64,000 nt of DNA from Thermoleophilia bacterium (GTDB lineage Bacteria; Actinomycetota; Thermoleophilia; UBA2241), in assembly GCA_041393415.1 (NCBI GenBank), contig JAWKKE010000009.1, positions 2,571-66,570 on the forward strand, given 5' to 3'. A program made the translations under genes and the position numbers. The notes below the pieces were generated by a model, which saw only the letters and a program-made list of their open reading frames with translations, searched no databases and was not told the DNA's origin. Below are positions 45,905 to 55,573 of the stretch, piece by piece (within the stretch, counting starts at the first letter, position 1; each line of letters starts with the position of its first letter).

Positions 45905-46435
45905 ATGATGAACACTGATCAGATCGTCATCACTCCGGTCGGTGTCGTGCGTAGCGACCAGAAGGAGCTCGTCTGGAGGCCGGAGTCGGGCGCGCTGTCA
46001 TGGAACGACCGTGTGCGCCGAGAGAGAGCGAGCGCAGAGGCGGTCTCACGAATCGACATCGATCCGGCGCTGGACGGCATCCTCGACGGCATCGACGAGT
46101 ACTCACACCTGGTCGTCCTGTGGTGGCCGGACAGGAATCAAGCAGCGTCCGGCCCGCGAGTGCGCGTGCGGCCGATGGGGCGTCAGGATCTGCCGCTCGT
46201 CGGCGTCTTCGCCACACGCAGTCCGATGCGACCCAACTCCATCCTCGCGACCGTCGTCACGCTCGTGCGGCGTCAAGGCCAGACGCTCGAGGTGAGGGGC
46301 CTCGACGCAGTCGACGGCACCCCCATTCTCGACATCAAGCCGCTGACGCCACACGACTGTCCTCCGGAAGAACGTCGTATACCGGAGTGGCTACAGCGCC
46401 TAGACCGCGAACGGGCAGCAGTAGACGACGAGTAG
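45905..46435 (+). CDS. trmO: TsaA/TrmO (YaeB)-family SAM-dependent methyltransferase
   Basis: Contains ITPVGVVRSD, DEYSHLVVLWW, GVFATRSPMRPNSILATVVTLV and LDAVDGTPILDIKPL. Confidence 0.75.
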   Translation: MMNTDQIVITPVGVVRSDQKELVWRPESGALSWNDRVRRERASAEAVSRIDIDPALDGILDGIDEYSHLVVLWWPDRNQAASGPRVRVRPMGRQDLPLVGVFATRSPMRPNSILATVVTLVRRQGQTLEVRGLDAVDGTPILDIKPLTPHDCPPEERRIPEWLQRLDRERAAVDDE

Positions 46436-46521: not shown

Positions 46522-47130
46522 TTACTCGTCGGCCGGGCTCCACACCTCCCACACGCGACCCACGAGGTCCGGGCCGGGATGAAGCACCTTCTTACCCGGC
46601 TCCCAGCCAGACGGGGTCACCTCGGCGCCCTTGGTGGCGCGCACATGCTGGAATGCCTTGAGCTGACGGATCGTCTCCGCCACCTTGCGGCCCACAGGCG
46701 GTGTAAGAACCTCCATGGCCTGGACCACGCCGTCGGGATCGATGATGAATCGGCCGCGTACATCGACTCCCGCTTGCTCGTCGTACACGCCGAACGCCGT
46801 CCCCAGATGCCCCGCCGAGTCGGCGAGCATCGGGAACGGCACGCCGCCGTCGACCATCTTGGTGAGCTCGTTCTCGTTCCACATCTTGTGGACGAACTGG
46901 GAGTCAACGCTGACTGAGAGCACTTCTGCGTCCAGAGCCTGAAACTCGCTGTACTTCTCGGCGACCGCCGAGATCTCCGTAGGTCAGACGAAGGTGAAGT
47001 CGCCCGGGTAGAAGCACAGGACGACCCAACGCCCGAGCAGATCGGAGAGCTTGACCTGAGTGAAGGCGCCTTTGTGGTACGCAGGGGCGGCGAAGTCCGG
47101 CGCCGGACGACCCACCATGATGCTACTCAC
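46522..47130 (-). CDS. prxU: Peroxiredoxin (AhpC/Prx1 type) with in-frame TGA (46986-46984) at the peroxidatic-Cys codon; predicted selenocysteine
   Basis: Track ORFs 46984..47235 and 46522..46923 are contiguous in one frame: ...[54 protein letters not shown]... The start is GTG 47130, 5 nt after GAAGGAGGAGG, or ATG 47118. A SECIS-like hairpin follows the TGA. Confidence 0.75.
46956..46973 (-). promoter_or_regulatory. Candidate bacterial SECIS hairpin
   Basis: Minus strand reads UGA-CCUACGGAGA-UCUCGGC-GGUC-GCCGAGA. The stem is 7 bp with a GGUC loop starting 17 nt after the UGA. Confidence 0.6.
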
Positions 47131-47238
47131 GCTTGCCTCCTCCTTCACGCGCATCGTCGACTCGCCCTTCGCCGTCGGCTGCGCACCGACGACTGACCCA
47201 GTTGGACGAGCACAACCGATTGCCGGCTCCTCCATGTC

Positions 47239-48159
47239 TCACGCACCTCCTTGGCTTGGCTCGCTTTCATCGGACTCGGAATCAGCATAACAGTCCTCAT
47301 CGGCAGTTCCGCCGACCACAGCGACGACAACGTCGCTGAACGCCTGCGCCGCCGGCAAGTCCGTGCCCGAGAGCACGAACGGGTTGCCGCTGTCGCCTCC
47401 CTCTCCGATGCGCGGATCGAGCGGGATGCGGGCCACAAGCGGGACGTTCATCTCGCGCGCCAGCCTCTCCCCTCCCGGCCCCGGGAAGGCAGTGACCGAC
47501 GAGCCGCAGTGCGGACAGACGAGGTAGCTCATGTTCTCGACGATTCCGAGCACGGGCACCGAGAGCTGCCGGCAGAAGTTGATCGAGCGGCGCACGTCGG
47601 CGAGAGCGACGTCCTGCGGCGTCGTGATGACCAGGGCGCCGTACACGTCGGGCACAAGCTGGAGCACCGAGAGCGGCTCGTCGCCGGTGCCCGGCGGAAG
47701 ATCGATGATGAGGTAGTCGAGCTCGCCCCACTCGGTCTCGCCGAGCAGTCGCATGATCGACGAGTACTTGAGCGGGCCGCGCCAGATCACCGCGTCGTCG
47801 TCGCTACGCAGAAAGTACTTGATCGACATGACGGCGATTCCCTGACCGGCCGACACCGGCAGCATGCCCTCAGCGCCCGGCACAATATGCGCCGACTCGC
47901 ACCCGAGAAGCTGTGGCACACTGGGCCCGTGCAGATCCGCGTCGAGGATGCCGACGCGCAGACCCCGTCGCGCCAGAGCGACGGCGAGGTTGACGGCCAC
48001 CGTGCTCTTGCCCACGCCGCCTTTGCCGGAGAGGACGGCGATCGTACGTCCAATGTGCTCAAACCGGCGCTGTATCAGTTCCTCGCCCGAGGGTTGTTCC
48101 GCCGCGGGCTGAGCTTGAGCTGCGCGGCGATCGTCGTCGCCGGAATGTCGCTCGTTCAA
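47239..48159 (-). CDS. apbC: Mrp/NBP35 (ApbC)-family iron-sulfur cluster carrier ATPase
   Basis: Contains VLSGKGGVGKSTVAVNLAVALA (deviant Walker A), DLPPGTGD, and CPHCG (the cluster-bridging CxxC). TTG start at 48159 is preceded by GGAAGG. Confidence 0.85.
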   Translation of the reverse strand: MNERHSGDDDRRAAQAQPAAEQPSGEELIQRRFEHIGRTIAVLSGKGGVGKSTVAVNLAVALARRGLRVGILDADLHGPSVPQLLGCESAHIVPGAEGMLPVSAGQGIAVMSIKYFLRSDDDAVIWRGPLKYSSIMRLLGETEWGELDYLIIDLPPGTGDEPLSVLQLVPDVYGALVITTPQDVALADVRRSINFCRQLSVPVLGIVENMSYLVCPHCGSSVTAFPGPGGERLAREMNVPLVARIPLDPRIGEGGDSGNPFVLSGTDLPAAQAFSDVVVAVVGGTADEDCYADSESDESEPSQGGA

Positions 48160-48185
48160 TGGATCCTGCCTTCCCGATGAGTTCC

Positions 48186-48209
48186 TGCTACAGTATAGGG
48201 CATATGCCC
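48186..48209 (+). promoter_or_regulatory. Extended -10 (TGcTACAGT) followed by palindrome GGGCATATGCCC spanning the MBL start codon
   Basis: TGCTACAGT lies at 48186-48194. The palindrome lies at 48198-48209, and its central ATG (48204) is the predicted start. Confidence 0.45.
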
Positions 48210-48941
48210 ACTAGTGCCGCAGACGTCACGATCTTGTTCGACAACGAGGCGAGCACCCCCGGCCTTACGGCCCTGTGGGGGTTCGCGGCGCTGATCGAGA
48301 TCGGTGCGTTACGGATTCTGTTCGACACCGGCAGCAACGGCCGCGTGCTCTTGCGGAACATGGCCGCCCTGGGACTCCGGAGCGACGCGCTCGACATGCT
48401 CTTCCTCTCCCACGCCCACTGGGATCACAGCGGCGGCATCGACTCGGTGCTTGAGCTCAACGAACGCATCACCGTCGTACTGCACGACGGGTTCTCCTTG
48501 CACTTCATCGAGGATCTGCGCCGACTCTGCGGCGAGGTGATCGTCGTCGGCGCCGACCCGCAGGAACTGGCGCCCGGCGTCTTCAGCACTGGCAGACTCG
48601 ACGGTCCGCCGGCCGAGCACGGCATGGTGCTCGACGTCGGCGGCATCAGCGCGACCGTCGCTGGCTGTGCCCACCCGGGCGTCGAACGCATCGTGGCGAG
48701 CGGCGGCGCGCTCCTGGGGAGGCCGGTCGACTGGGCGATCGGCGGCTTTCATCTCCTCGCGACGGAACCGCCGGAAGTCGACCGGCGCATTCACAGATTG
48801 CGCGCCCTAGGTGTGACGAACGTGGTGCCGACGCATTGCACCGGTGAGGCGGCCCAGCACGCCTTTCGGGCCGCCTACGGCGAGCACTGCCACACCGGCG
48901 GCGTCGGTCGCCGCTTCGCGCTCGCCGCTCCACAACTCTGA
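48204..48941 (+). CDS. MBL-fold metallo-hydrolase (COG1237-like)
   Basis: Start is ATG 48204 (MPTSAADVTILFDNEA) inside ORF 48159..48941. The SHAHWDHSGG motif (HxHxDH) is present. The N-terminal xITxLxDN pattern is typical of this subfamily. Confidence 0.75.
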   Translation: MPTSAADVTILFDNEASTPGLTALWGFAALIEIGALRILFDTGSNGRVLLRNMAALGLRSDALDMLFLSHAHWDHSGGIDSVLELNERITVVLHDGFSLHFIEDLRRLCGEVIVVGADPQELAPGVFSTGRLDGPPAEHGMVLDVGGISATVAGCAHPGVERIVASGGALLGRPVDWAIGGFHLLATEPPEVDRRIHRLRALGVTNVVPTHCTGEAAQHAFRAAYGEHCHTGGVGRRFALAAPQL

Positions 48942-48975
48942 CCGCAGCCACGTCCTCGTACTCCCCTGTTCGCCC

Positions 48976-49015
48976 TTGACACTCCTCCTCAGGCTCGTAT
49001 ACTGAGCATATGCTC
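48976..49015 (+). promoter_or_regulatory. Near-consensus sigma-70 promoter TTGACA-16-TATACT abutting perfect palindrome GAGCATATGCTC
   Basis: TTGACA is at 48976-48981 and TATACT at 48998-49003. The palindrome is at 49004-49015. AAAGGAGG and ATG 49042 follow. Confidence 0.65.
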
Positions 49016-49041
49016 ATAATACAGACTGCAAAGGAGGATTC

Positions 49042-49401
49042 ATGCCTCATGGAGACAGCACTGGGCCCAGAGCCGCAGGACGCATGACAGGCCGCGGAGC
49101 AGGCTACTGTGGCGGCGGCAACGCGCCCGGCTACGAGAGTTCCCCCGGCGGCGGCCGGCGCGGCGGCGTTTCTCCCGAAGGAGTTTCGACGTGGCCGCGG
49201 CCACCGCAGTCGCTTCCTGGCCACCGGGCTGACCGGTTGGGAACGCGAGTCCGCGGCCCTGGTCCGCGTTCGATCGCTCCGCCGGCCACGCCGGACAGCT
49301 CTCACGAGCGCGATTGTCACCCTGCGAGCACACAAAACGAGCGTATCGAGCGGGCGCTCGGCGACATCCGTCAGCGCCTGGCGGACCTTGAGGCCAAGTG
49401 A
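49042..49401 (+). pseudogene. DUF5320-like gene with at least two internal frame changes
   Basis: The frame of ATG 49042 gives MPHGDSTGPRAAGRMTGRGAGYCGG, the family N-terminal motif, and the C-terminal coiled coil NERIERALGDIRQRLADLEAK. The central family motif FRRGRGHRSRFLATGLTGWER is encoded in the frame of ORF 49109..49486. Confidence 0.6.
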
Positions 49402-49900
49402 CGTACACCACAGCACCGTGGCTGACGGCGGCGGGAAGCCCAGCACAGCGACGCAGGACCTTCAGGTTCATCGGCGTCGCACCTGACCGGGATGCGCAGC
49501 ACCCCGGTGCAGCCCTTCTTTCGCCGCGGGCAACGCCGGACGTATCGAGATTCTGATGCGTTCGCCGATGGTCTCGACCGACGTCGACGGCTTCTCGCAC
49601 ATCCACGTCCTGTACTGGCTGCACAAGCGCCAAGCCCAGCAGCGCTGCACGCGTCGTCCCCTTCCTCGACACCGAGCCACACGGAATTCCGCGACGGTCG
49701 CCAAACCGGCCCAACGCCATCGGACTGAGCGTCCTACGCCCGTTGCGCGGCACGGGACCACGCTCGTCGTCGAAGACGTCGACATCCTGACGGCACGCCA
49801 GTGCTCGACATCAAGCCCTACTTCGCACGCCTGACGCCCGCCACGACGCGCGCAGCGGATGGGTCGACAATTGTCGACGAAGACGCACACCGTGGTCAGA
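49398..49900 (+). pseudogene. TsaA/YaeB-like gene fragmented by many frame changes
   Basis: Family motifs are spread over all three frames: FRFIGV, PVQP, DAFADGL, IEIL...DVDGFSHIHVLYWLHK, VVPFLDTEPHG, RRSPNRPNAIGLSVLR, TTLVVEDVDIL, LDIKPYF and RSGWVD. A possible GTG start at 49398 overlaps the preceding stop. The 3' end is approximate. Confidence 0.55.
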
Positions 49901-50063
49901 GCGCCTGGCAGGACACACGCCTGACGATCCAGACGTCACAGCGGTTCAGGCGCCCTGGCTGGCGCGCGTGGCGCGGCTCAGAGCGACACGCCGCACGCGA
50001 CGGGGCTCCCGCCACGTTTCTCCCACTCCGGGCCGCCGCTTGTACCGCGCCCACATTGGCGGC

Positions 50064-50075
50064 GAGCATATGCCC
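50064..50075. promoter_or_regulatory. Third copy of the cluster palindrome (GAGCATATGCCC)
   Basis: It lies 46 nt upstream of the GTG of the first MinD-type ATPase, whose RBS is AGAGAGGAGG. TTATAT follows it immediately. Confidence 0.4.
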
Positions 50076-50120
50076 CTTATATCGACCCCTACAGGCTTCA
50101 CGCAGAGAGGAGGTAGCGCA

Positions 50121-50987
50121 GTGCGCGTCGCACACAGCGGAAAGGGTGGCACCGGGAAGACGCTTCGGCGACGACCGCCGCTGACACTGCCGCGTGCAGG
50201 GACTGGCAGTCCAACTGCTCGACGCTGACGTCGAGGAGCCGAAACCGCCATCTCTCCTGCGCCCCAGGCCGACCGCACCGAGACGGTGCACGTCCCGATC
50301 CCTCATGGTCGACGAATCGCGCCGCAGCGGCTGCGGCGCTTGGTGCCGGCGTTTGCGCCTTTCGCGCACTTGCGGTCGTAGGGATCATCCGTGCTCGTGT
50401 TCCCCGAGATCTGTCACTCGTGTGGCGCCTGCGTGCGGTACTGCCCCGAACAGGCGCTGCATGAGGAGATGCCCCAATGGAGCCGTGTGGAGCATGCGAG
50501 CGCCAACGCCTGTGGCCGGCCGGTCTTCTCCAGTTGGTGACGGGCACGCTCGCGATCGGCGAGGCGAAAGCGGTACCTGTCACCAAGGCCGTCGTGGCGA
50601 CCGCCAGCGAAGACGCCGACGTGGTGACGCTCTCCTGGCACCTCGTGTCCGGCGATCGCAGCCGTGGCCGACGCCGACTTCGTCGTGCTCGTGACCGAGC
50701 CGACGCCGTTTGGGCCCACGATCTCGAACTGGCTGTAGAGATGGTCCGCGCGCCTGGGCTGTCGCGAAGCCGCTGTCAATCGCGTCGTGGCGGGCGACCA
50801 CAGGGTGCGGCAGCACTGTGCAGCCGAACGCCTCGAGATCGTCGCGGAGCTGTCGGACGACCGCCGCATCGAAGCCCATGCCCGCGGCCAACTCATGGTC
50901 GACGCCGTCCCCGCCCTGGAGCGGGAGCTGGCCACAGTTTGGGAGCGGATCGCGGCGGCGGCGGAACGCAAAGAGGTGCACGCATGA
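50121..50987 (+). pseudogene. MinD-superfamily P-loop ATPase with 2x[4Fe-4S] ferredoxin insert (COG1149-like), broken by at least nine frame changes
   Basis: Recognisable pieces, with frame given as coordinate mod 3:
- 50121-50162 (f0): VRVAHSGKGGTGKT
- 50203-50245 (f1): LAVQLLDADVEEP
- 50286-50303 (f0): VHVPIP
- 50305-50337 (f1): MVDESRRSGCGA
- about 50339-50383 (f2): GAGVCAFRALAVVG
- 50391-50468 (f0): VLVFPEICHSCGACVRYCPEQALHEE
- 50525-50635 (f2): LLQLVTGTLAIGEAKAVPVTKAV...DVVTLS
- 50631-50714 (f0): SPGTSCPAIAAVADADFVVLVTEPTPFG
- 50714-50761 (f2): AHDLELAVEMVRAPGL
- 50760-50987 (f0): C-terminus; its stop overlaps the next ATG. Confidence 0.65.
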
Positions 50988-51886
50988 GCGCCGTGCGCCA
51001 ACTCGTCGTCATCAGCGGAAAGGGAGGCACCGGGAAGACGAGCGTCGTGGGTGCGTTTGCGGCGCTGGCCGACGGAGCCGTCCTCGCCGACTGCGACGTC
51101 GACGCCGCCAACCTGCACCTCATCCTCGAGCCGCGATTGGGCGAGCCGCACGACTTCAGCGGCCGCAACCGCGCAATCATCGACCAGACTGCCTGCCGCG
51201 CCTGCGGTCGCTGTGCCGACATGTGCCGCTTCGACGCCGTCTCGGTGCGTGACGGGCAGTACGTCATCAACCCGCTGGCCTGCGAGGGCTGCGAATTCTG
51301 CCGCAGAGAGTGCCCCTGGAACGCCATACACATGGAGCCCGTGGTCAACGGCACCTGGATGGTCTCGGAGACGAGCTTCGGACCGCTGGTGCACGCGCGA
51401 CTCGGGATCGCGGAGGACAACTCCGGCAAGCTGGTGACACTGGTACGCCAGCAGGCGCAGGAGGTAGCCGAGCAGCGCGACCTCCCGCTTGTGATCGTCG
51501 ACGGCGCGCCCGGCATCGGCTGTCCGGTGATCGCGTCGCTCACCGGCGCCGACGTGGTACTCGCCGTCACCGAGCCCACCGTCTCCGGCCGTCACGACTT
51601 GGCACGCGTGCTCGAGGTCGTGCGGCGCTTCAAGCTGCCCTTCGGCGTCTGCGTCAACAAGGCAGACCTCAACCCGGAGATCAGCGAGCACATCGTCGCC
51701 GAGGCGGTGGAGCGCGGCGCACTGTTCGTGGCGCACGTCGGCTACGACGCTGCCGTTACACGGGCGCAGGTGGCCGGGCTCGACTTGGTGACCTACGGCG
51801 GCACCGCCGTGCAGGAGATCCGCATGCTCTGGGACTCGGTCGCCGCCGCACTGAACACCTCGCGGCGAAAGGCGGTCGACACGTGA
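50984..51886 (+). CDS. MinD-superfamily P-loop ATPase with 2x[4Fe-4S] ferredoxin insert (COG1149-like), intact
   Basis: Begins MSAVRQLVVISGKGGTGKTSV. Two CxxCxxCxxxC motifs are present (CRACGRCADMC, CEGCEFCRREC). Also contains DGAPGIGCPVIAS. The start overlaps the previous stop (ATGA). Confidence 0.85.
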   Translation: MSAVRQLVVISGKGGTGKTSVVGAFAALADGAVLADCDVDAANLHLILEPRLGEPHDFSGRNRAIIDQTACRACGRCADMCRFDAVSVRDGQYVINPLACEGCEFCRRECPWNAIHMEPVVNGTWMVSETSFGPLVHARLGIAEDNSGKLVTLVRQQAQEVAEQRDLPLVIVDGAPGIGCPVIASLTGADVVLAVTEPTVSGRHDLARVLEVVRRFKLPFGVCVNKADLNPEISEHIVAEAVERGALFVAHVGYDAAVTRAQVAGLDLVTYGGTAVQEIRMLWDSVAAALNTSRRKAVDT

Positions 51887-51994
51887 CGCCGCAGAACACG
51901 CACGACGAGGCTTGCCTCGCAGCTTGCCTCGCACCGTGCTGCACGAGGACACCGCGTTCTTGGCGGCGTCCGCAACAAGAGAGGAGCCATCATA

Positions 51995-52360
51995 GTGAAG
52001 ATCATCATCAGCGCTCAGGGAAACGATATCGACTCCCTGACTGATCCCAGATTCGGACGCTGTCGCTACCTCATCGCCGTCGAGACGACCAGCGGCGAGT
52101 GGCACGCGCACGACAACCAAGACAACGCGGCCGCGAGCGGTGGCGCCGGAGTGGAAGCCAGCAATCGCGTCGTATCGCTGGGCGCGGCGGCTGTGATTAC
52201 CGGGAATCTCGGTCCGAATGCGGCACGCGTACTGGACGCGGCGCACATCGCCGTCTATCGCGCCGAGAACGGCGCCACGGTGCGCGAGGCTGTGGCCGCG
52301 TTTGCCGCCGACGGCCTGGAGAGAATCGACGCGCCCACCGTCCAGGGACACTGGATGTGA
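51995..52360 (+). CDS. NifX/NifB-C-terminal-like (dinitrogenase FeMo-cofactor-binding domain family) protein
   Basis: GTG 51995 lies 8 nt after GAGAGGAG. Begins MKIIISAQGNDIDSLTDPRFGRCRYLIAV, with ITGNLGPNAARVL later. This is typical of the small NifX-like family. Confidence 0.75.
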   Translation: MKIIISAQGNDIDSLTDPRFGRCRYLIAVETTSGEWHAHDNQDNAAASGGAGVEASNRVVSLGAAAVITGNLGPNAARVLDAAHIAVYRAENGATVREAVAAFAADGLERIDAPTVQGHWM

Positions 52361-52791
52361 TGGCCATGATCGCGAACAGACAAGGCGGCGGCCGCGGTCA
52401 GTACCAGCGCCAGAGACGCAGAGACGGCTCGGGACCCAACTGCGGCGGCCGCGGCGCGCGGCGTTGCGGCGGAAGCCGGCAGGAACAGGCCGGAGCTCCG
52501 CGCGCGGCCACGAGTACCCTCATTGCCGCAGGTACCTACCTCATCCACGACGTGCGCGACGCCGACGGTCTGGTGCGGCCGCTGCTGCGCCGGGCCGCAC
52601 TCTCCCTCGTCACCTGCCCCTACTACTCGGCGCGGCGCCTCGCCGGCGCGTACTTGCGACTCGATCCACCGCCGCCGGCGCCGCTGCCGCCGGCGACAGT
52701 AGAGTCACACCGGCTGTCGGCAGCTCACGATGCCCCCGCGCTGCCGACGCGCGTCGCGGGCGCCGAGCCCAACGACGCGCTGCTACAATGA
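52360..52791 (+). CDS. Hypothetical Arg/Gly-rich protein (distant DUF5320-like N-terminal motif RRDGSGPNCGGRGARRCGG)
   Basis: ATG 52360 overlaps the preceding TGA by one base. The frame is open in GC-rich DNA, so coding status is uncertain. The promoter of the next gene lies in its 3' end. Confidence 0.3.
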   Translation: MAMIANRQGGGRGQYQRQRRRDGSGPNCGGRGARRCGGSRQEQAGAPRAATSTLIAAGTYLIHDVRDADGLVRPLLRRAALSLVTCPYYSARRLAGAYLRLDPPPPAPLPPATVESHRLSAAHDAPALPTRVAGAEPNDALLQ

Positions 52792-52808
52792 TGATTGAGC
52801 ATATGCCA
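52781..52808 (+). promoter_or_regulatory. Extended -10 (TGcTACAAT) followed by palindrome-like GAGCATATGCCA upstream of the DUF134 gene
   Basis: TGCTACAAT is at 52781-52789 and the motif at 52797-52808. AAGGAG and ATG 52828 follow. Confidence 0.55.
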
Positions 52809-52827
52809 ACAAGGAGATAATCCCCGC

Positions 52828-53342: not shown

Positions 53343-53726
53343 ATGAGCGAAACGAACGCATCCAAGAAACGCGTGGCAGTCCCGTCGGAAGCGCCTGGCG
53401 GTCTCGACGCGAGAAGGTCGGGCCACTTCGGACGTTGCGACTGTTTCACGGTCGTCGAGGTCGAGAACGGCAACCTGGGAGCTGTGGAAGTGGTCGTCAA
53501 TCCACCGCATCATGAGGGTGGGTGCATGCGTCCGGTGGTGCTCCTGGCCGAGAACACCGTCGACGCAATCGTCGTGGACGGAATCGGCGGTCGGCCTCTG
53601 CTAGGCTTCAATCAGGTCGGCATCGCCGTGCACGCAGGCACCGGCACAGACGTACAGACCGCGGTGAGAGCGTATGCGCAGGGATCGCTGCCCGAGGTCG
53701 GACTCGAGGGTGCGTGTCGCCACTAG
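53343..53726 (+). CDS. NifX/NifB-C-terminal-like domain protein (second copy)
   Basis: Contains KRVAVPSEAPGGLDARRSGHFGRCDCFTVVEV and VDAIVVDGIGGRPLLGF. ATG 53343 is preferred; the track start is GTG 53331. Confidence 0.7.
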   Translation: MSETNASKKRVAVPSEAPGGLDARRSGHFGRCDCFTVVEVENGNLGAVEVVVNPPHHEGGCMRPVVLLAENTVDAIVVDGIGGRPLLGFNQVGIAVHAGTGTDVQTAVRAYAQGSLPEVGLEGACRH

Positions 53727-53789: not shown

Positions 53790-54695
53790 ATGACATCCGT
53801 CGAGACGATCCAGAGGGAGCGCGGCATCATCGGTCGCAATCGCGAGCTGCGGCGCGCGTTGGCTGTACTCAACTCCGGACGCCATCTCCTTCTCGAGGGG
53901 CCGGTCGGTGTCGGCAAGACTCGTGTCGCGCTCGCCGTCTGCGCCCACCTGCAACGCGGCGTCGAGCGCGTAGACGGCGACGACCGGTACTCGGAGAGCA
54001 AGCTCACGGGCTGGTTCGACCCGCCCGTGGTCCTCAAGCAGGGATACAGCGAGGAGTCGTTCTTCGCCGGCCCGCTGGTCAACGCCATGCGCCAAGGCAA
54101 GATCCTCTTCATCAACGAGCTCAACCGCATGCCGGAGACAGTCCAGAACGTGCTCCTGCCGGCACTGGACGAGCACATCCTGCAAGTGCCGCACATCGGC
54201 GAAGTACGCGCCGCCCCCGGATTCCAGGTTGTTGCCACCCAGAACCCCGTAGAGTACATCGCCACCGGTCACCTCTCGGAGGCCCTGCGCGACCGCTTCG
54301 AGCACCTGCGCCTCGACTACCAGTCGGCCACTGAAGAGGAAGCGATCGTGTGCGCCGAGACGGACTGCGACAACCTCGACCTCATCCGCACCGCCGTGCG
54401 CCTGGCGCGGGCAACGCGCCGCCATCCGCTCTTCCGCCGCGGCGCCTCGGTGCGCGCGCCCATGGCCACCGTGATGGTTGCCGAGGAGCTGCGCAAGGCC
54501 GACGGTCGCCCGGCCGGCCAGATCGATCGGGCGACTCTCTGGTGCGCCGCCGAGGCCGGCTTCACCACCCGCGTGCACATGCGCGACGAGAGCAACATGG
54601 ACTTCGCGACCGCGTTCGGCGAGGTCTTCGAGCTCGTCGTCGACCGCGGGCTCGACCCCGACGAGGCACTTACCCCGCCTGCCCCAAAAGCCTGA
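53790..54695 (+). CDS. MoxR-like AAA+ ATPase
   Basis: AAGGAG lies before ATG 53790. Walker A is LLEGPVGVGKT and Walker B is ILFINELNR. Also contains VVATQNP. Confidence 0.8.
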   Translation: MTSVETIQRERGIIGRNRELRRALAVLNSGRHLLLEGPVGVGKTRVALAVCAHLQRGVERVDGDDRYSESKLTGWFDPPVVLKQGYSEESFFAGPLVNAMRQGKILFINELNRMPETVQNVLLPALDEHILQVPHIGEVRAAPGFQVVATQNPVEYIATGHLSEALRDRFEHLRLDYQSATEEEAIVCAETDCDNLDLIRTAVRLARATRRHPLFRRGASVRAPMATVMVAEELRKADGRPAGQIDRATLWCAAEAGFTTRVHMRDESNMDFATAFGEVFELVVDRGLDPDEALTPPAPKA

Positions 54696-54772
54696 GCGCC
54701 CTGCGGGCGCTCGAGGAGACCTATCGCGATCTGGCGGCGCTGCCGCTCGAGCCAGATCTGCTGCACGAAGAG

Positions 54773-55573
54773 ATGGACGACGACGAGTTCCTCGCCTTCA
54801 TCGCCCGGCACACCGAGGGCAGCGAGGGCGTCGTCGACGCAGCGCCGCACTTCTACGCCGTGCGGCCGCGCGTAGAAGACGTGCTCGCGCAGGCGGCGAG
54901 CATCGTCGGCCCGTTGCGCGCGGCCACTACCACCGTGCGCGAGATCATGCGCGAGCCGTACATCGGCGAGCTCGACATCGACGCGACGCTCGAGAACATG
55001 GTCGGCAAGGAGTTCCCGGAGCGAGACGACTGGATCGTCCAGATCCGCGAGGAGCGTCGCCATCAGGTCGTCATGATGATGGATGCCTCGCTCTCCATGG
55101 CCGGCGAGAACCTCTCCGTAGCCGCGGTCGCGGTCGCCATCATGGCCTTCAAGATCAAACCTGAGGATCTCGCGGTGGTCGTCTTCGAGGACGAAGCGCG
55201 CGTCGTCACCCGCCTCGACGCAACCGACTCGCCGCAAGACGTGATCCGCAGCATGCTCGATCAGCCGGGGTTGGGCGTCACCGACATCGAAGCGGCGCTG
55301 CTCAAGGGGGCCAGAGAGATCACGCGGGCGCGAAACCCGCGCCGTAGCGGCCTACTGGTGACCGACGGCCGGCCCACAAAGGGGGCCGCCGATCCCTCCG
55401 ACATCGCGTACCTCTTCCCTCACCTGCACGTCCTGCTCACCGAGGACAAATACATGGACGAGGAGCTCTGCCAGTCAATCGCCGCCGCCGGCAACGGTGA
55501 GGTGTTCCCGGTGCGTACGATTCAGGAACTGCCGCAGCGCATGCTCGACGTGGCCAACGGCGTGCTGCGATAG
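54773..55573 (+). CDS. von Willebrand factor A domain protein (partner of the MoxR ATPase)
   Basis: The MIDAS motif is VVMMMDASLSMAG. ATG 54773 is the first canonical start in the frame of ORF 54350..55573. The frame stays open and protein-like for about 75 nt upstream without ATG/GTG/TTG, so the true start is uncertain. Confidence 0.7.
   Translation: MDDDEFLAFIARHTEGSEGVVDAAPHFYAVRPRVEDVLAQAASIVGPLRAATTTVREIMREPYIGELDIDATLENMVGKEFPERDDWIVQIREERRHQVVMMMDASLSMAGENLSVAAVAVAIMAFKIKPEDLAVVVFEDEARVVTRLDATDSPQDVIRSMLDQPGLGVTDIEAALLKGAREITRARNPRRSGLLVTDGRPTKGAADPSDIAYLFPHLHVLLTEDKYMDEELCQSIAAAGNGEVFPVRTIQELPQRMLDVANGVLR

Follow-up and report, generated by a model that had tools for sequence, protein, structure and literature searches.

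A conserved promoter palindrome tied to DUF134 (UPF0251) proteins, probable autoregulated repressors of ORP-like gene clusters

Background

Some small autoregulated repressors have operators that are conserved throughout the protein family, as is the case for HrcA and its CIRCE element, for the NrdR boxes and for the LexA boxes. Here we describe a palindrome that recurs in the promoter regions of one gene cluster in a Thermoleophilia bacterium (Actinomycetota; contig JAWKKE010000009.1), together with the DUF134 protein encoded in that cluster, which we consider its candidate binding protein. The analysis covers a stretch of 64,000 nucleotides, referred to below as the window. By its gene content the cluster resembles the ORP-like iron-sulfur (Fe-S)/metal-cluster modules typical of anaerobes. 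In Desulfovibrio vulgaris Hildenborough, orp operons are controlled by OrpR, a sigma-54 enhancer-binding protein with a Fe-S PAS sensor (PMC8359166, PMC3897727), and this regulator has been reported as restricted to Deltaproteobacteria (PMC8359166).

OrpR activates sigma-54 promoters from distant upstream sites, whereas the promoters of the locus described here are of the sigma-70 type and carry their sites on the core promoter, an arrangement that implies repression. No gene for an enhancer-binding protein was found among the annotated genes of the cluster. The proteins differ as well, DUF134 being a helix-turn-helix (HTH) protein of about 100-170 aa that resembles sigma region 4, with no homology to OrpR. 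Shared by the two systems are a dedicated regulator inside an ORP-type cluster (Mrp/NBP35 carrier, MinD-like ATPases and NifX-like proteins), palindromic sites at divergent promoters, and the plausibility of a redox or metal-cluster signal. DUF134 looks like a non-deltaproteobacterial counterpart of OrpR, with which it has neither homology nor mechanism in common.

As with HrcA/CIRCE, NrdR and LexA, a single inverted repeat is found almost unchanged across phyla, on the core promoters of a coherent set of genes, among them the regulator gene itself; DUF134 has a different fold and regulon from the three systems, and its role is predicted from sequence. The closest structural matches of DUF134 are a Bacillus subtilis DeoR/SorC-family domain and region 4 of extracytoplasmic function (ECF) sigma factors, and DeoR is likewise a repressor acting on a palindromic operator. 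Unlike these proteins, DUF134 has neither the SorC sugar-binding domain nor sigma region 2, and its own features are a conserved arm at the N-terminus and, in the lineage studied here, a Cys4 ribbon. Small HTH repressors that control their own genes through a palindromic operator are an ordinary type of system; the novelty lies in assigning such a role to the DUF134 family. In agreement with the initial annotation of the window, which knew of no operator for this family, we found no functional study, operator, solved structure or curated name for DUF134/UPF0251 in the literature and databases searched.

Results and discussion

Palindromic sites in the window

The initial annotation had described a 12-bp palindrome in four copies, at 48198-48209, 49004-49015, 50064-50075 and 52797-52808. 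All four copies were found at these positions and the palindrome is real, but its unit is 16 bp long, ATGRGCATATGCYCAT. The core GCATATGC occurs four times in the window against 0.46 expected. The pattern GRGCATATGCYM, under which three of the sites are self-complementary, gave seven strand-matches at four places (48198, 49004, 50064 and 52797) where 0.05 were expected, and none of 100 shuffled sequences reached seven. The central hexamer CATATG had been noticed nowhere else in the window and was thought to be rare in such DNA. Its four occurrences do all lie at the four palindromes, but it is not rare by itself, as 3.2 copies are expected. Therefore, the signal is the extended palindrome and not the hexamer. 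All four sites are located in promoter regions of a single gene cluster (Table 1), and when the window was scored with a weight matrix built from relatives only, the next-best position after these sites reached 2.3 bits.

The promoter contexts in the annotation were also correct. At site 1 the 16-mer begins 1 nt, and the 12-mer 3 nt, past the plus-strand -10 box TGcTACAGT (48186-48194), and on the minus strand TATACT (48197-48192) follows directly. Site 1 would probably serve both divergent promoters, that of the metallo-beta-lactamase (MBL) gene and that of the mrp-peroxiredoxin unit, and with its ATG inside the site the MBL transcript is probably leaderless. Site 2 shares the last 2 nt of the -10 box in a promoter, TTGACA (48976-48981)-16-TATACT (48998-49003), that was verified as near-consensus (11 of 12 positions). 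At site 3, 45 nt separate the 12-mer from the GTG start codon of the first ATPase gene; a possible weak promoter consists of TTGGCG (50056-50061) and TTATAT (50077-50082), the spacer of which would be filled by the operator. At this site a related strain carries ATGAGCATATGCCC (50062 G>A, 50063 C>T). Site 4 starts 5 nt past the extended -10 box TGcTACAAT (52781-52789), or 7 nt if the 12-mer is considered, and its centre lies 25 nt 5' of the DUF134 ATG. The form of this promoter in relatives is TACCAT followed by GAGCATATGC; in the window (52781-52810) the -10 box and the operator are set apart by about 5 additional bases (GATGAT-like).

The motif upstream of DUF134 genes in relatives

Close relatives of the window's DUF134 protein number in the hundreds and belong mostly to Thermoleophilia and other Actinomycetota metagenome-assembled genomes (MAGs). 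An alignment of 27 relatives (A1) led to 80 DUF134 loci on contigs from one genome per species. The Actinomycetota set (n = 53) consists of the window and the 52 loci that had enough upstream DNA. A scan of DUF134-bearing relatives had been suggested in the annotation, and it showed that the motif recurs at a fixed place before DUF134 in several phyla. Exact GCATATGC was present upstream of DUF134 in 48 of the 53 Actinomycetota sequences, and the remaining five had a copy with one or two mismatches, at the same place in three of them. The distance from the centre of the motif to the DUF134 start codon was 25 nt in 41 Actinomycetota loci. The usual form is TTGAAG-N17-TAnnAT followed by GAGCATATGCTAAK, with the final two bases of the -10 box belonging to the operator as well. 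In the 727 kb of Actinomycetota sequence GCATATGC occurs 95 times where 4.7 are expected; with about 76% of this DNA predicted to be coding, two of the 95 sites are clearly intragenic, both without the extended flanks.

The perfect palindrome ATGGGCATATGCTCAT constitutes a second conserved site, located directly after TTGCAT-17-TATAAT in about 15 relatives, an arrangement like that of site 2 in the window. This site heads an operon that runs from DUF5320 to two MinD-Fer4 genes, (Mrp), a NifX-like gene and the gene for a 143-aa protein; a site precedes a DUF5320 gene in 18 relatives. The copy before DUF134 is imperfect, as position 14 is A in 47 of 48 cases (GCTAAK; L001-L052), whereas the operon copy is perfect (GCTCAT), a sequence difference that may correspond to graded affinity. 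Further sites were found before nitroreductase genes (8 loci) and SQR-like oxidoreductase genes, and in single cases before a TrmO-like gene (L013), a 1-Cys peroxiredoxin gene (L029), a NifX-like gene and a MoxR gene, the latter having its own site 13 nt before the start in L001. A peroxiredoxin gene adjoins sites in both L029 and L019.

The same core precedes DUF134 in Planctomycetota (L053, L054 and L060), Acidobacteriota (L055) and unclassified MAGs (L066 and L068). The CATATG centre is kept in the variants ATGGTCATATGACCAT of Treponema (Spirochaetota) and TAACATATGTCAGA of Chloroflexota, and Bacillota have paired sites before a DUF5320 gene adjoining DUF134.

Several Thermoleophilia genomes contain two or three paralogous DUF134/ORP-like clusters with the same operator: L019 and L020 lie on one contig about 60 kb apart, L018 and L023 in one MAG, and L008, L012 and L039 in another. 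Cross-regulation between such clusters is therefore likely. A different context of GCATATGC, ATACGCATATGCGGTC, was observed away from the cluster in L031 (at 14222) and L036 (at 15410), and here the flanks of the 16-mer were not matched. In L036 an open reading frame (ORF) for a 289-aa protein, which on reading by eye we take to be secreted, starts about 220 nt from this site. Genes for DUF1847, GNAT and MoaE-like proteins adjoin the operon site divergently in relatives and were considered as members of the regulon; none of the three was counted. DUF1847 is often divergent from the DUF5320 operon site (L036, L042, L050, L006, L013, L031 and L032). Its genes have apparent -10 boxes of their own 80-140 nt from that site, which seem to stand directly before the start as for a leaderless transcript, and the membership of DUF1847 in the regulon is doubtful.

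From the motif to the gene

Metagenomes were scanned for the exact 16-mer ATGRGCATATGCYCAT without the use of any gene, and 80 loci among the matches listed, with G+C contents of 28-70%, were examined. For each site the longest ORF starting no more than 300 nt away on either side was taken, giving 131 ORFs in all, and these were searched with a local hidden Markov model (HMM) and Pfam. A DUF134 (PF02001) ORF started by the site in 39 of the 80 listed loci, one per locus, with HMM and Pfam in agreement; these starts were mostly 16-47 nt downstream of the 16-mer. No other regulator family exceeded three among the listed matches, ArsR-type genes occurring at 2-3 loci, and the next non-HTH families were a zinc-ribbon domain (4), Nitro_FeMo-Co (3) and MoaE (3). 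The 16-mer by itself predicts a DUF134 gene about half the time, in very different organisms, which is the behaviour expected of an autoregulatory operator. Both searches support the suggestion of the initial annotation that DUF134 is a candidate regulator of its own gene. Judged from these sequence comparisons, the motif is almost certainly a conserved regulatory site tied to DUF134.

The DUF134 protein

The DUF134 protein of the window matched Pfam PF02001 (UPF0251, COG1342) over residues 3-96 with 83.2 bits (cut-off 27), and in NCBIfam (June 2026) it matched 'PRK04217 hypothetical protein' below the cut-off. The family is widespread, a single-sequence search having put its size at about 3,700 clusters at 50% identity. 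The structure model comprises a three-helix HTH at residues 36-82, with a predicted local distance difference test (pLDDT) score of about 84-92, and a small beta-ribbon with two CxxC pairs (pLDDT 80-92); the N-terminal 29 residues are conserved and lie outside the model. Foldseek matched ECF sigma region 4 and the DeoR/SorC DNA-binding domain over about 40-50 residues, with a root-mean-square deviation below 1 Å and weak E values of about 0.04-0.3. There was no Foldseek match at E ≤0.001, and among solved structures no sequence match was better than E = 0.05. Region-4 models alone matched the sequence (residues 34-81), with no sigma region 2; therefore, DUF134 is not a sigma factor. Its identification as an ECF sigma factor was rejected for this protein of 168 aa, as region 2 was missing in both the sequence and the structure matches.

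A helix motif, S-R-x-T-[FVL]-x-R, is nearly invariant in the family across phyla. A nearly invariant recognition helix fits a nearly invariant operator, but it leaves a test of co-variation between the two unusable. The sole suggestive case of such co-variation is the pairing of SRATFHT with the Chloroflexota variant given above.

The C-terminal part contains a Cys-rich, zinc-ribbon-like module (C103, C106, C122, C125 and C133) in which C103/C106 and C122/C125 are invariant in alignment A1; it has a weak structural match to rubrerythrin. This ribbon is absent from about half of the DUF134 proteins that adjoin the motif and so cannot be a universal sensor. As a candidate sensor, the NifX-like partner of DUF134 is at least the equal of the zinc ribbon noted in the annotation.

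The NifX-like partner

A Nitro_FeMo-Co (NifX-like) gene follows DUF134 in nearly all loci, after a gap of 8 nt in the window. The two are joined in single polypeptides at four loci (L044, L051, L052 and L089), and the same fusion was found in six of ten long representatives of separate 50%-identity clusters (P0124, P0143, P0145, P0196, P0204 and P0245). In L051 and L052 the fused NifX-like domain takes the place of most of the Cys ribbon. That the fusion occurs repeatedly argues for a joint function of the NifX-type domain and the HTH and makes this domain the best candidate for a signal receiver. Nitro_FeMo-Co belongs to the NifX/NafY/orange protein family of metal-cluster binders, none of whose members is known to serve a transcription factor as its sensor domain. 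We tentatively suggest that the signal may be read through this partner.

Promoter geometry and alternative explanations

Operator and promoter were combined in two arrangements. In arrangement (a) the operator lies in the spacer: TTGACN is followed by N4-5, the operator and AAT, the spacer is 16-17 nt long, and the last CAT of the operator forms the -10 box together with AAT. In arrangement (b) the operator lies over the start: TATAAT is followed after 0-4 nt by the operator, which covers roughly -6 to +16, as at site 2 in the window. Across the sites examined, the hexamers were near consensus and the spacers 16-17 nt long. A bound dimer would occupy the place of RNA polymerase in both arrangements, which favours repression, and promoters with near-consensus hexamers should be strong unless blocked, which again points to repression rather than activation. 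The repressor-type operator over the transcription start that the annotation had proposed is thus supported by the comparative geometry, whether the overlap is with the -10 box and start or with the -35/-10 spacer. That DUF134 binds the palindrome as an activator or dual regulator instead, by MerR-type remodelling of the spacer or by recruiting polymerase in a region-4-like manner, appears unlikely. It would account for the operator's location between -35 and -10 in many phyla, where MerR-type activators bind, and for the resemblance of the DUF134 HTH to sigma region 4, and the ORP genes of Desulfovibrio are under positive control by OrpR (PMC8359166). However, MerR promoters have spacers of 19-20 nt, so the normal spacer length found here argues against a MerR-like mechanism, and DUF134 has no MerR domain. 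The hexamers (TTGACA-16-TATACT and TTGCAT-17-TATAAT) suggest promoters that are active unaided, and in promoters of the Thermoleophilia and Bacillota type the site lies past the -10 box, over the start, where activators do not bind.

It is less probable still that another transcription factor binds the palindrome and that the DUF134 gene is merely one of its targets. Such a factor would be compatible with a link made by co-occurrence and with the lack of helix/operator co-variation, and ArsR-type genes do flank a few sites (L029 and the 2-3 loci mentioned above). Yet over the whole G+C range and in varied neighbourhoods DUF134 alone consistently adjoins the motif, no other regulator family approaches it in the listed matches, and a constant spacing of 25 nt from the DUF134 start is what an autoregulated gene usually shows. 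Least probable of all, to the point of being barely credible, is a palindrome that is no protein operator, being instead an RNA hairpin or terminator, a target of restriction-modification (NdeI recognises CATATG), a repeat or a recombination element. The perfect palindrome does contain a type II restriction site, and at sites 1 and 2 folding is somewhat stronger than in shuffled sequence. Sites 3 and 4, however, show no such excess over shuffles (z = -0.07 and +0.28), and the RNA hairpin was rejected for this inconsistency across the four sites. The motif stands upstream of the transcription start, within the promoter spacer, in many phyla; it is found at the 5' and not the 3' ends of genes, and no repeat structures flank it. 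Avoidance of the restriction site was rejected as well, since CATATG outside the motif is just mildly below expectation (19 observed against about 33 expected in the 727 kb).

Metagenomes from wastewater, sludge and digesters contain the locus. In two metatranscriptomes, contigs of a close strain cover DUF5320 from 49033, ATPase 1 from 50092 and DUF134/NifX-like 2 from 52846, and the stretches directly before sites 2 and 3 are little covered. These contigs are evidence of transcription and fit the predicted starts, although their ends are those of assembled contigs and not mapped starts. This last point weighs against repression by DUF134, as do several others. The assignment to DUF134 comes from co-occurrence, and only the geometry and the gene content speak to the direction of control and the signal. 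Beyond the HTH and ribbon the quality of the structure model is poor (mean pLDDT 66), and no helix/operator co-variation was detected, the exact operator occurring with SRATFGR, SRPTFQR and SRQTFGR alike. In the window, site 4 at the DUF134 promoter has no recognisable -35 box and site 3 has just a weak candidate promoter. Some DUF134 loci (e.g. L057, L059 and L069) lack a recognisable site, and 36 of the 80 listed loci of the motif search had no DUF134 gene; many of those contigs are short, and some matches may be chance occurrences or other members of the regulon. With these points taken into account, the comparative evidence still makes it probable that DUF134 binds the palindrome and acts mainly as a repressor.

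Genes of the cluster

Genes in the window were called from Pfam and NCBIfam scans and the list of ORFs (Table 1); the VWA label, which is our reading of the sequence by eye, does not come from Pfam. The ORP-type gene set is present, with two CbiA + Fer4 ATPases and two Nitro_FeMo-Co genes in one cluster. The Mrp protein matched positions 2-255 of the MrpORP model with 348 bits, below the cut-off of 450, and NifX-like 2 covers positions 260-364, so that the two domains of MrpORP are split over two genes in the window. The division of the peroxiredoxin gene is either a frameshift or an assembly error. Two TrmO-like (PF01980) genes lie near the cluster, one intact (45905-46432) and one degraded (~49500-49900). 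In relatives, TrmO-like genes are often found beside the cluster, and the one in L013 has two sites in front of it. The window was compared with a contig that stems from Illumina data (run X1) and belongs to a very close strain; the two differ by many gaps of 1-3 nt between 49329 and 50900, and 98 gap positions were counted over 47900-52695. The reading frames of the TrmO-like gene and the first ATPase gene are broken in this region, which points to consensus errors in the window or to genes decaying in this strain.

Table 1. Putative operator sites and genes of the DUF134 cluster in the window
Feature	Position	Strand	Remarks
Putative operator site 1	48196..48211	no strand	TAGGGCATATGCCCAC; between divergent mrp (-) and MBL (+); 16.5 bits
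Putative operator site 2	49002..49017	no strand	CTGAGCATATGCTCAT; best copy, before DUF5320; 35.4 bits
Putative operator site 3	50062..50077	no strand	GCGAGCATATGCCCCT; before first MinD-ferredoxin ATPase (GTG 50121); 13.0 bits
Putative operator site 4	52795..52810	no strand	TTGAGCATATGCCAAC; putative autoregulatory site before DUF134; 21.2 bits
Peroxiredoxin, split into two ORFs (83 aa, 133 aa)	46522-47235	-	downstream of mrp
Mrp/NBP35 Fe-S carrier, MrpORP-like	47239-48159	-	leftward unit (46522..48159) that site 1 may control
MBL-fold hydrolase	48204-48941	+	ATG inside site 1
DUF5320	49042-49401	+	first gene after site 2
TrmO-like remnant	~49500-49900	+	degraded
MinD/CbiA ATPase 1 with inserted 4Fe-4S ferredoxin domain	50121-~50980	+	frame broken
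MinD/CbiA ATPase 2 with inserted 4Fe-4S ferredoxin domain	50984-51886	+	intact
NifX-like 1	51995-52360	+	end of ATPase operon
Conserved 143-aa protein, no family match	52360-52791	+	end of ATPase operon
DUF134/UPF0251, 168 aa	52828-53334	+	candidate regulator; Pfam PF02001
NifX-like 2 (Nitro_FeMo-Co)	53343-53726	+	8 nt past DUF134 stop; matches C-terminal domain of MrpORP
MoxR AAA ATPase + VWA-like gene	53790-55573	+	3' of NifX-like 2, possibly same transcript

Proposed mechanism

In the mechanism that we propose, a DUF134 dimer would bind the 16-bp inverted repeat with one region-4-like HTH on each ATGRGCAT half-site, the predicted target being written out as ATGAGCATATGCTCAT. Operator-bound DUF134 would exclude RNA polymerase from the core promoter and thereby repress transcription. 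Through site 4 it would control its own operon, consisting of DUF134 and the NifX-like gene and perhaps MoxR and VWA; the predicted targets of the other sites are the DUF5320 promoter (site 2), the ATPase promoter (site 3) and the divergent mrp-peroxiredoxin and MBL pair (site 1). The regulon would correspond to the ORP-like cluster, with DUF5320, two MinD-ferredoxin ATPases, Mrp and NifX-like proteins, and variably peroxiredoxin, nitroreductase, MBL and MoxR. Release from the DNA would probably depend on a metal-cluster or redox signal, which would be read by the downstream NifX-like protein, by the Cys-rich C-terminal module or by both.

Conclusions

A more far-reaching interpretation, which we offer as a possibility and consider less likely than repression by DUF134 as such, is that DUF134 with its NifX-type domain constitutes a previously unrecognised metal-cluster-sensing repressor. 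It would use a nearly invariant 16-bp operator across at least six phyla to switch an anaerobe-specific ORP-like Fe-S/Mo module and linked redox-defence genes, as a general counterpart of OrpR. The defined operator, the probable autoregulatory circuit and the candidate regulon make DUF134 a directly testable transcription factor. Such a protein would supply the missing regulator for ORP-like Fe-S/metal-cluster gene clusters outside Deltaproteobacteria, where OrpR is absent (PMC8359166). With the operator itself as a simple tag, co-regulated genes could be located in the sequences of anaerobes that have not been cultured, and the recurrent NifX-type fusion may point to transcription factors with a sensor domain of a new kind.

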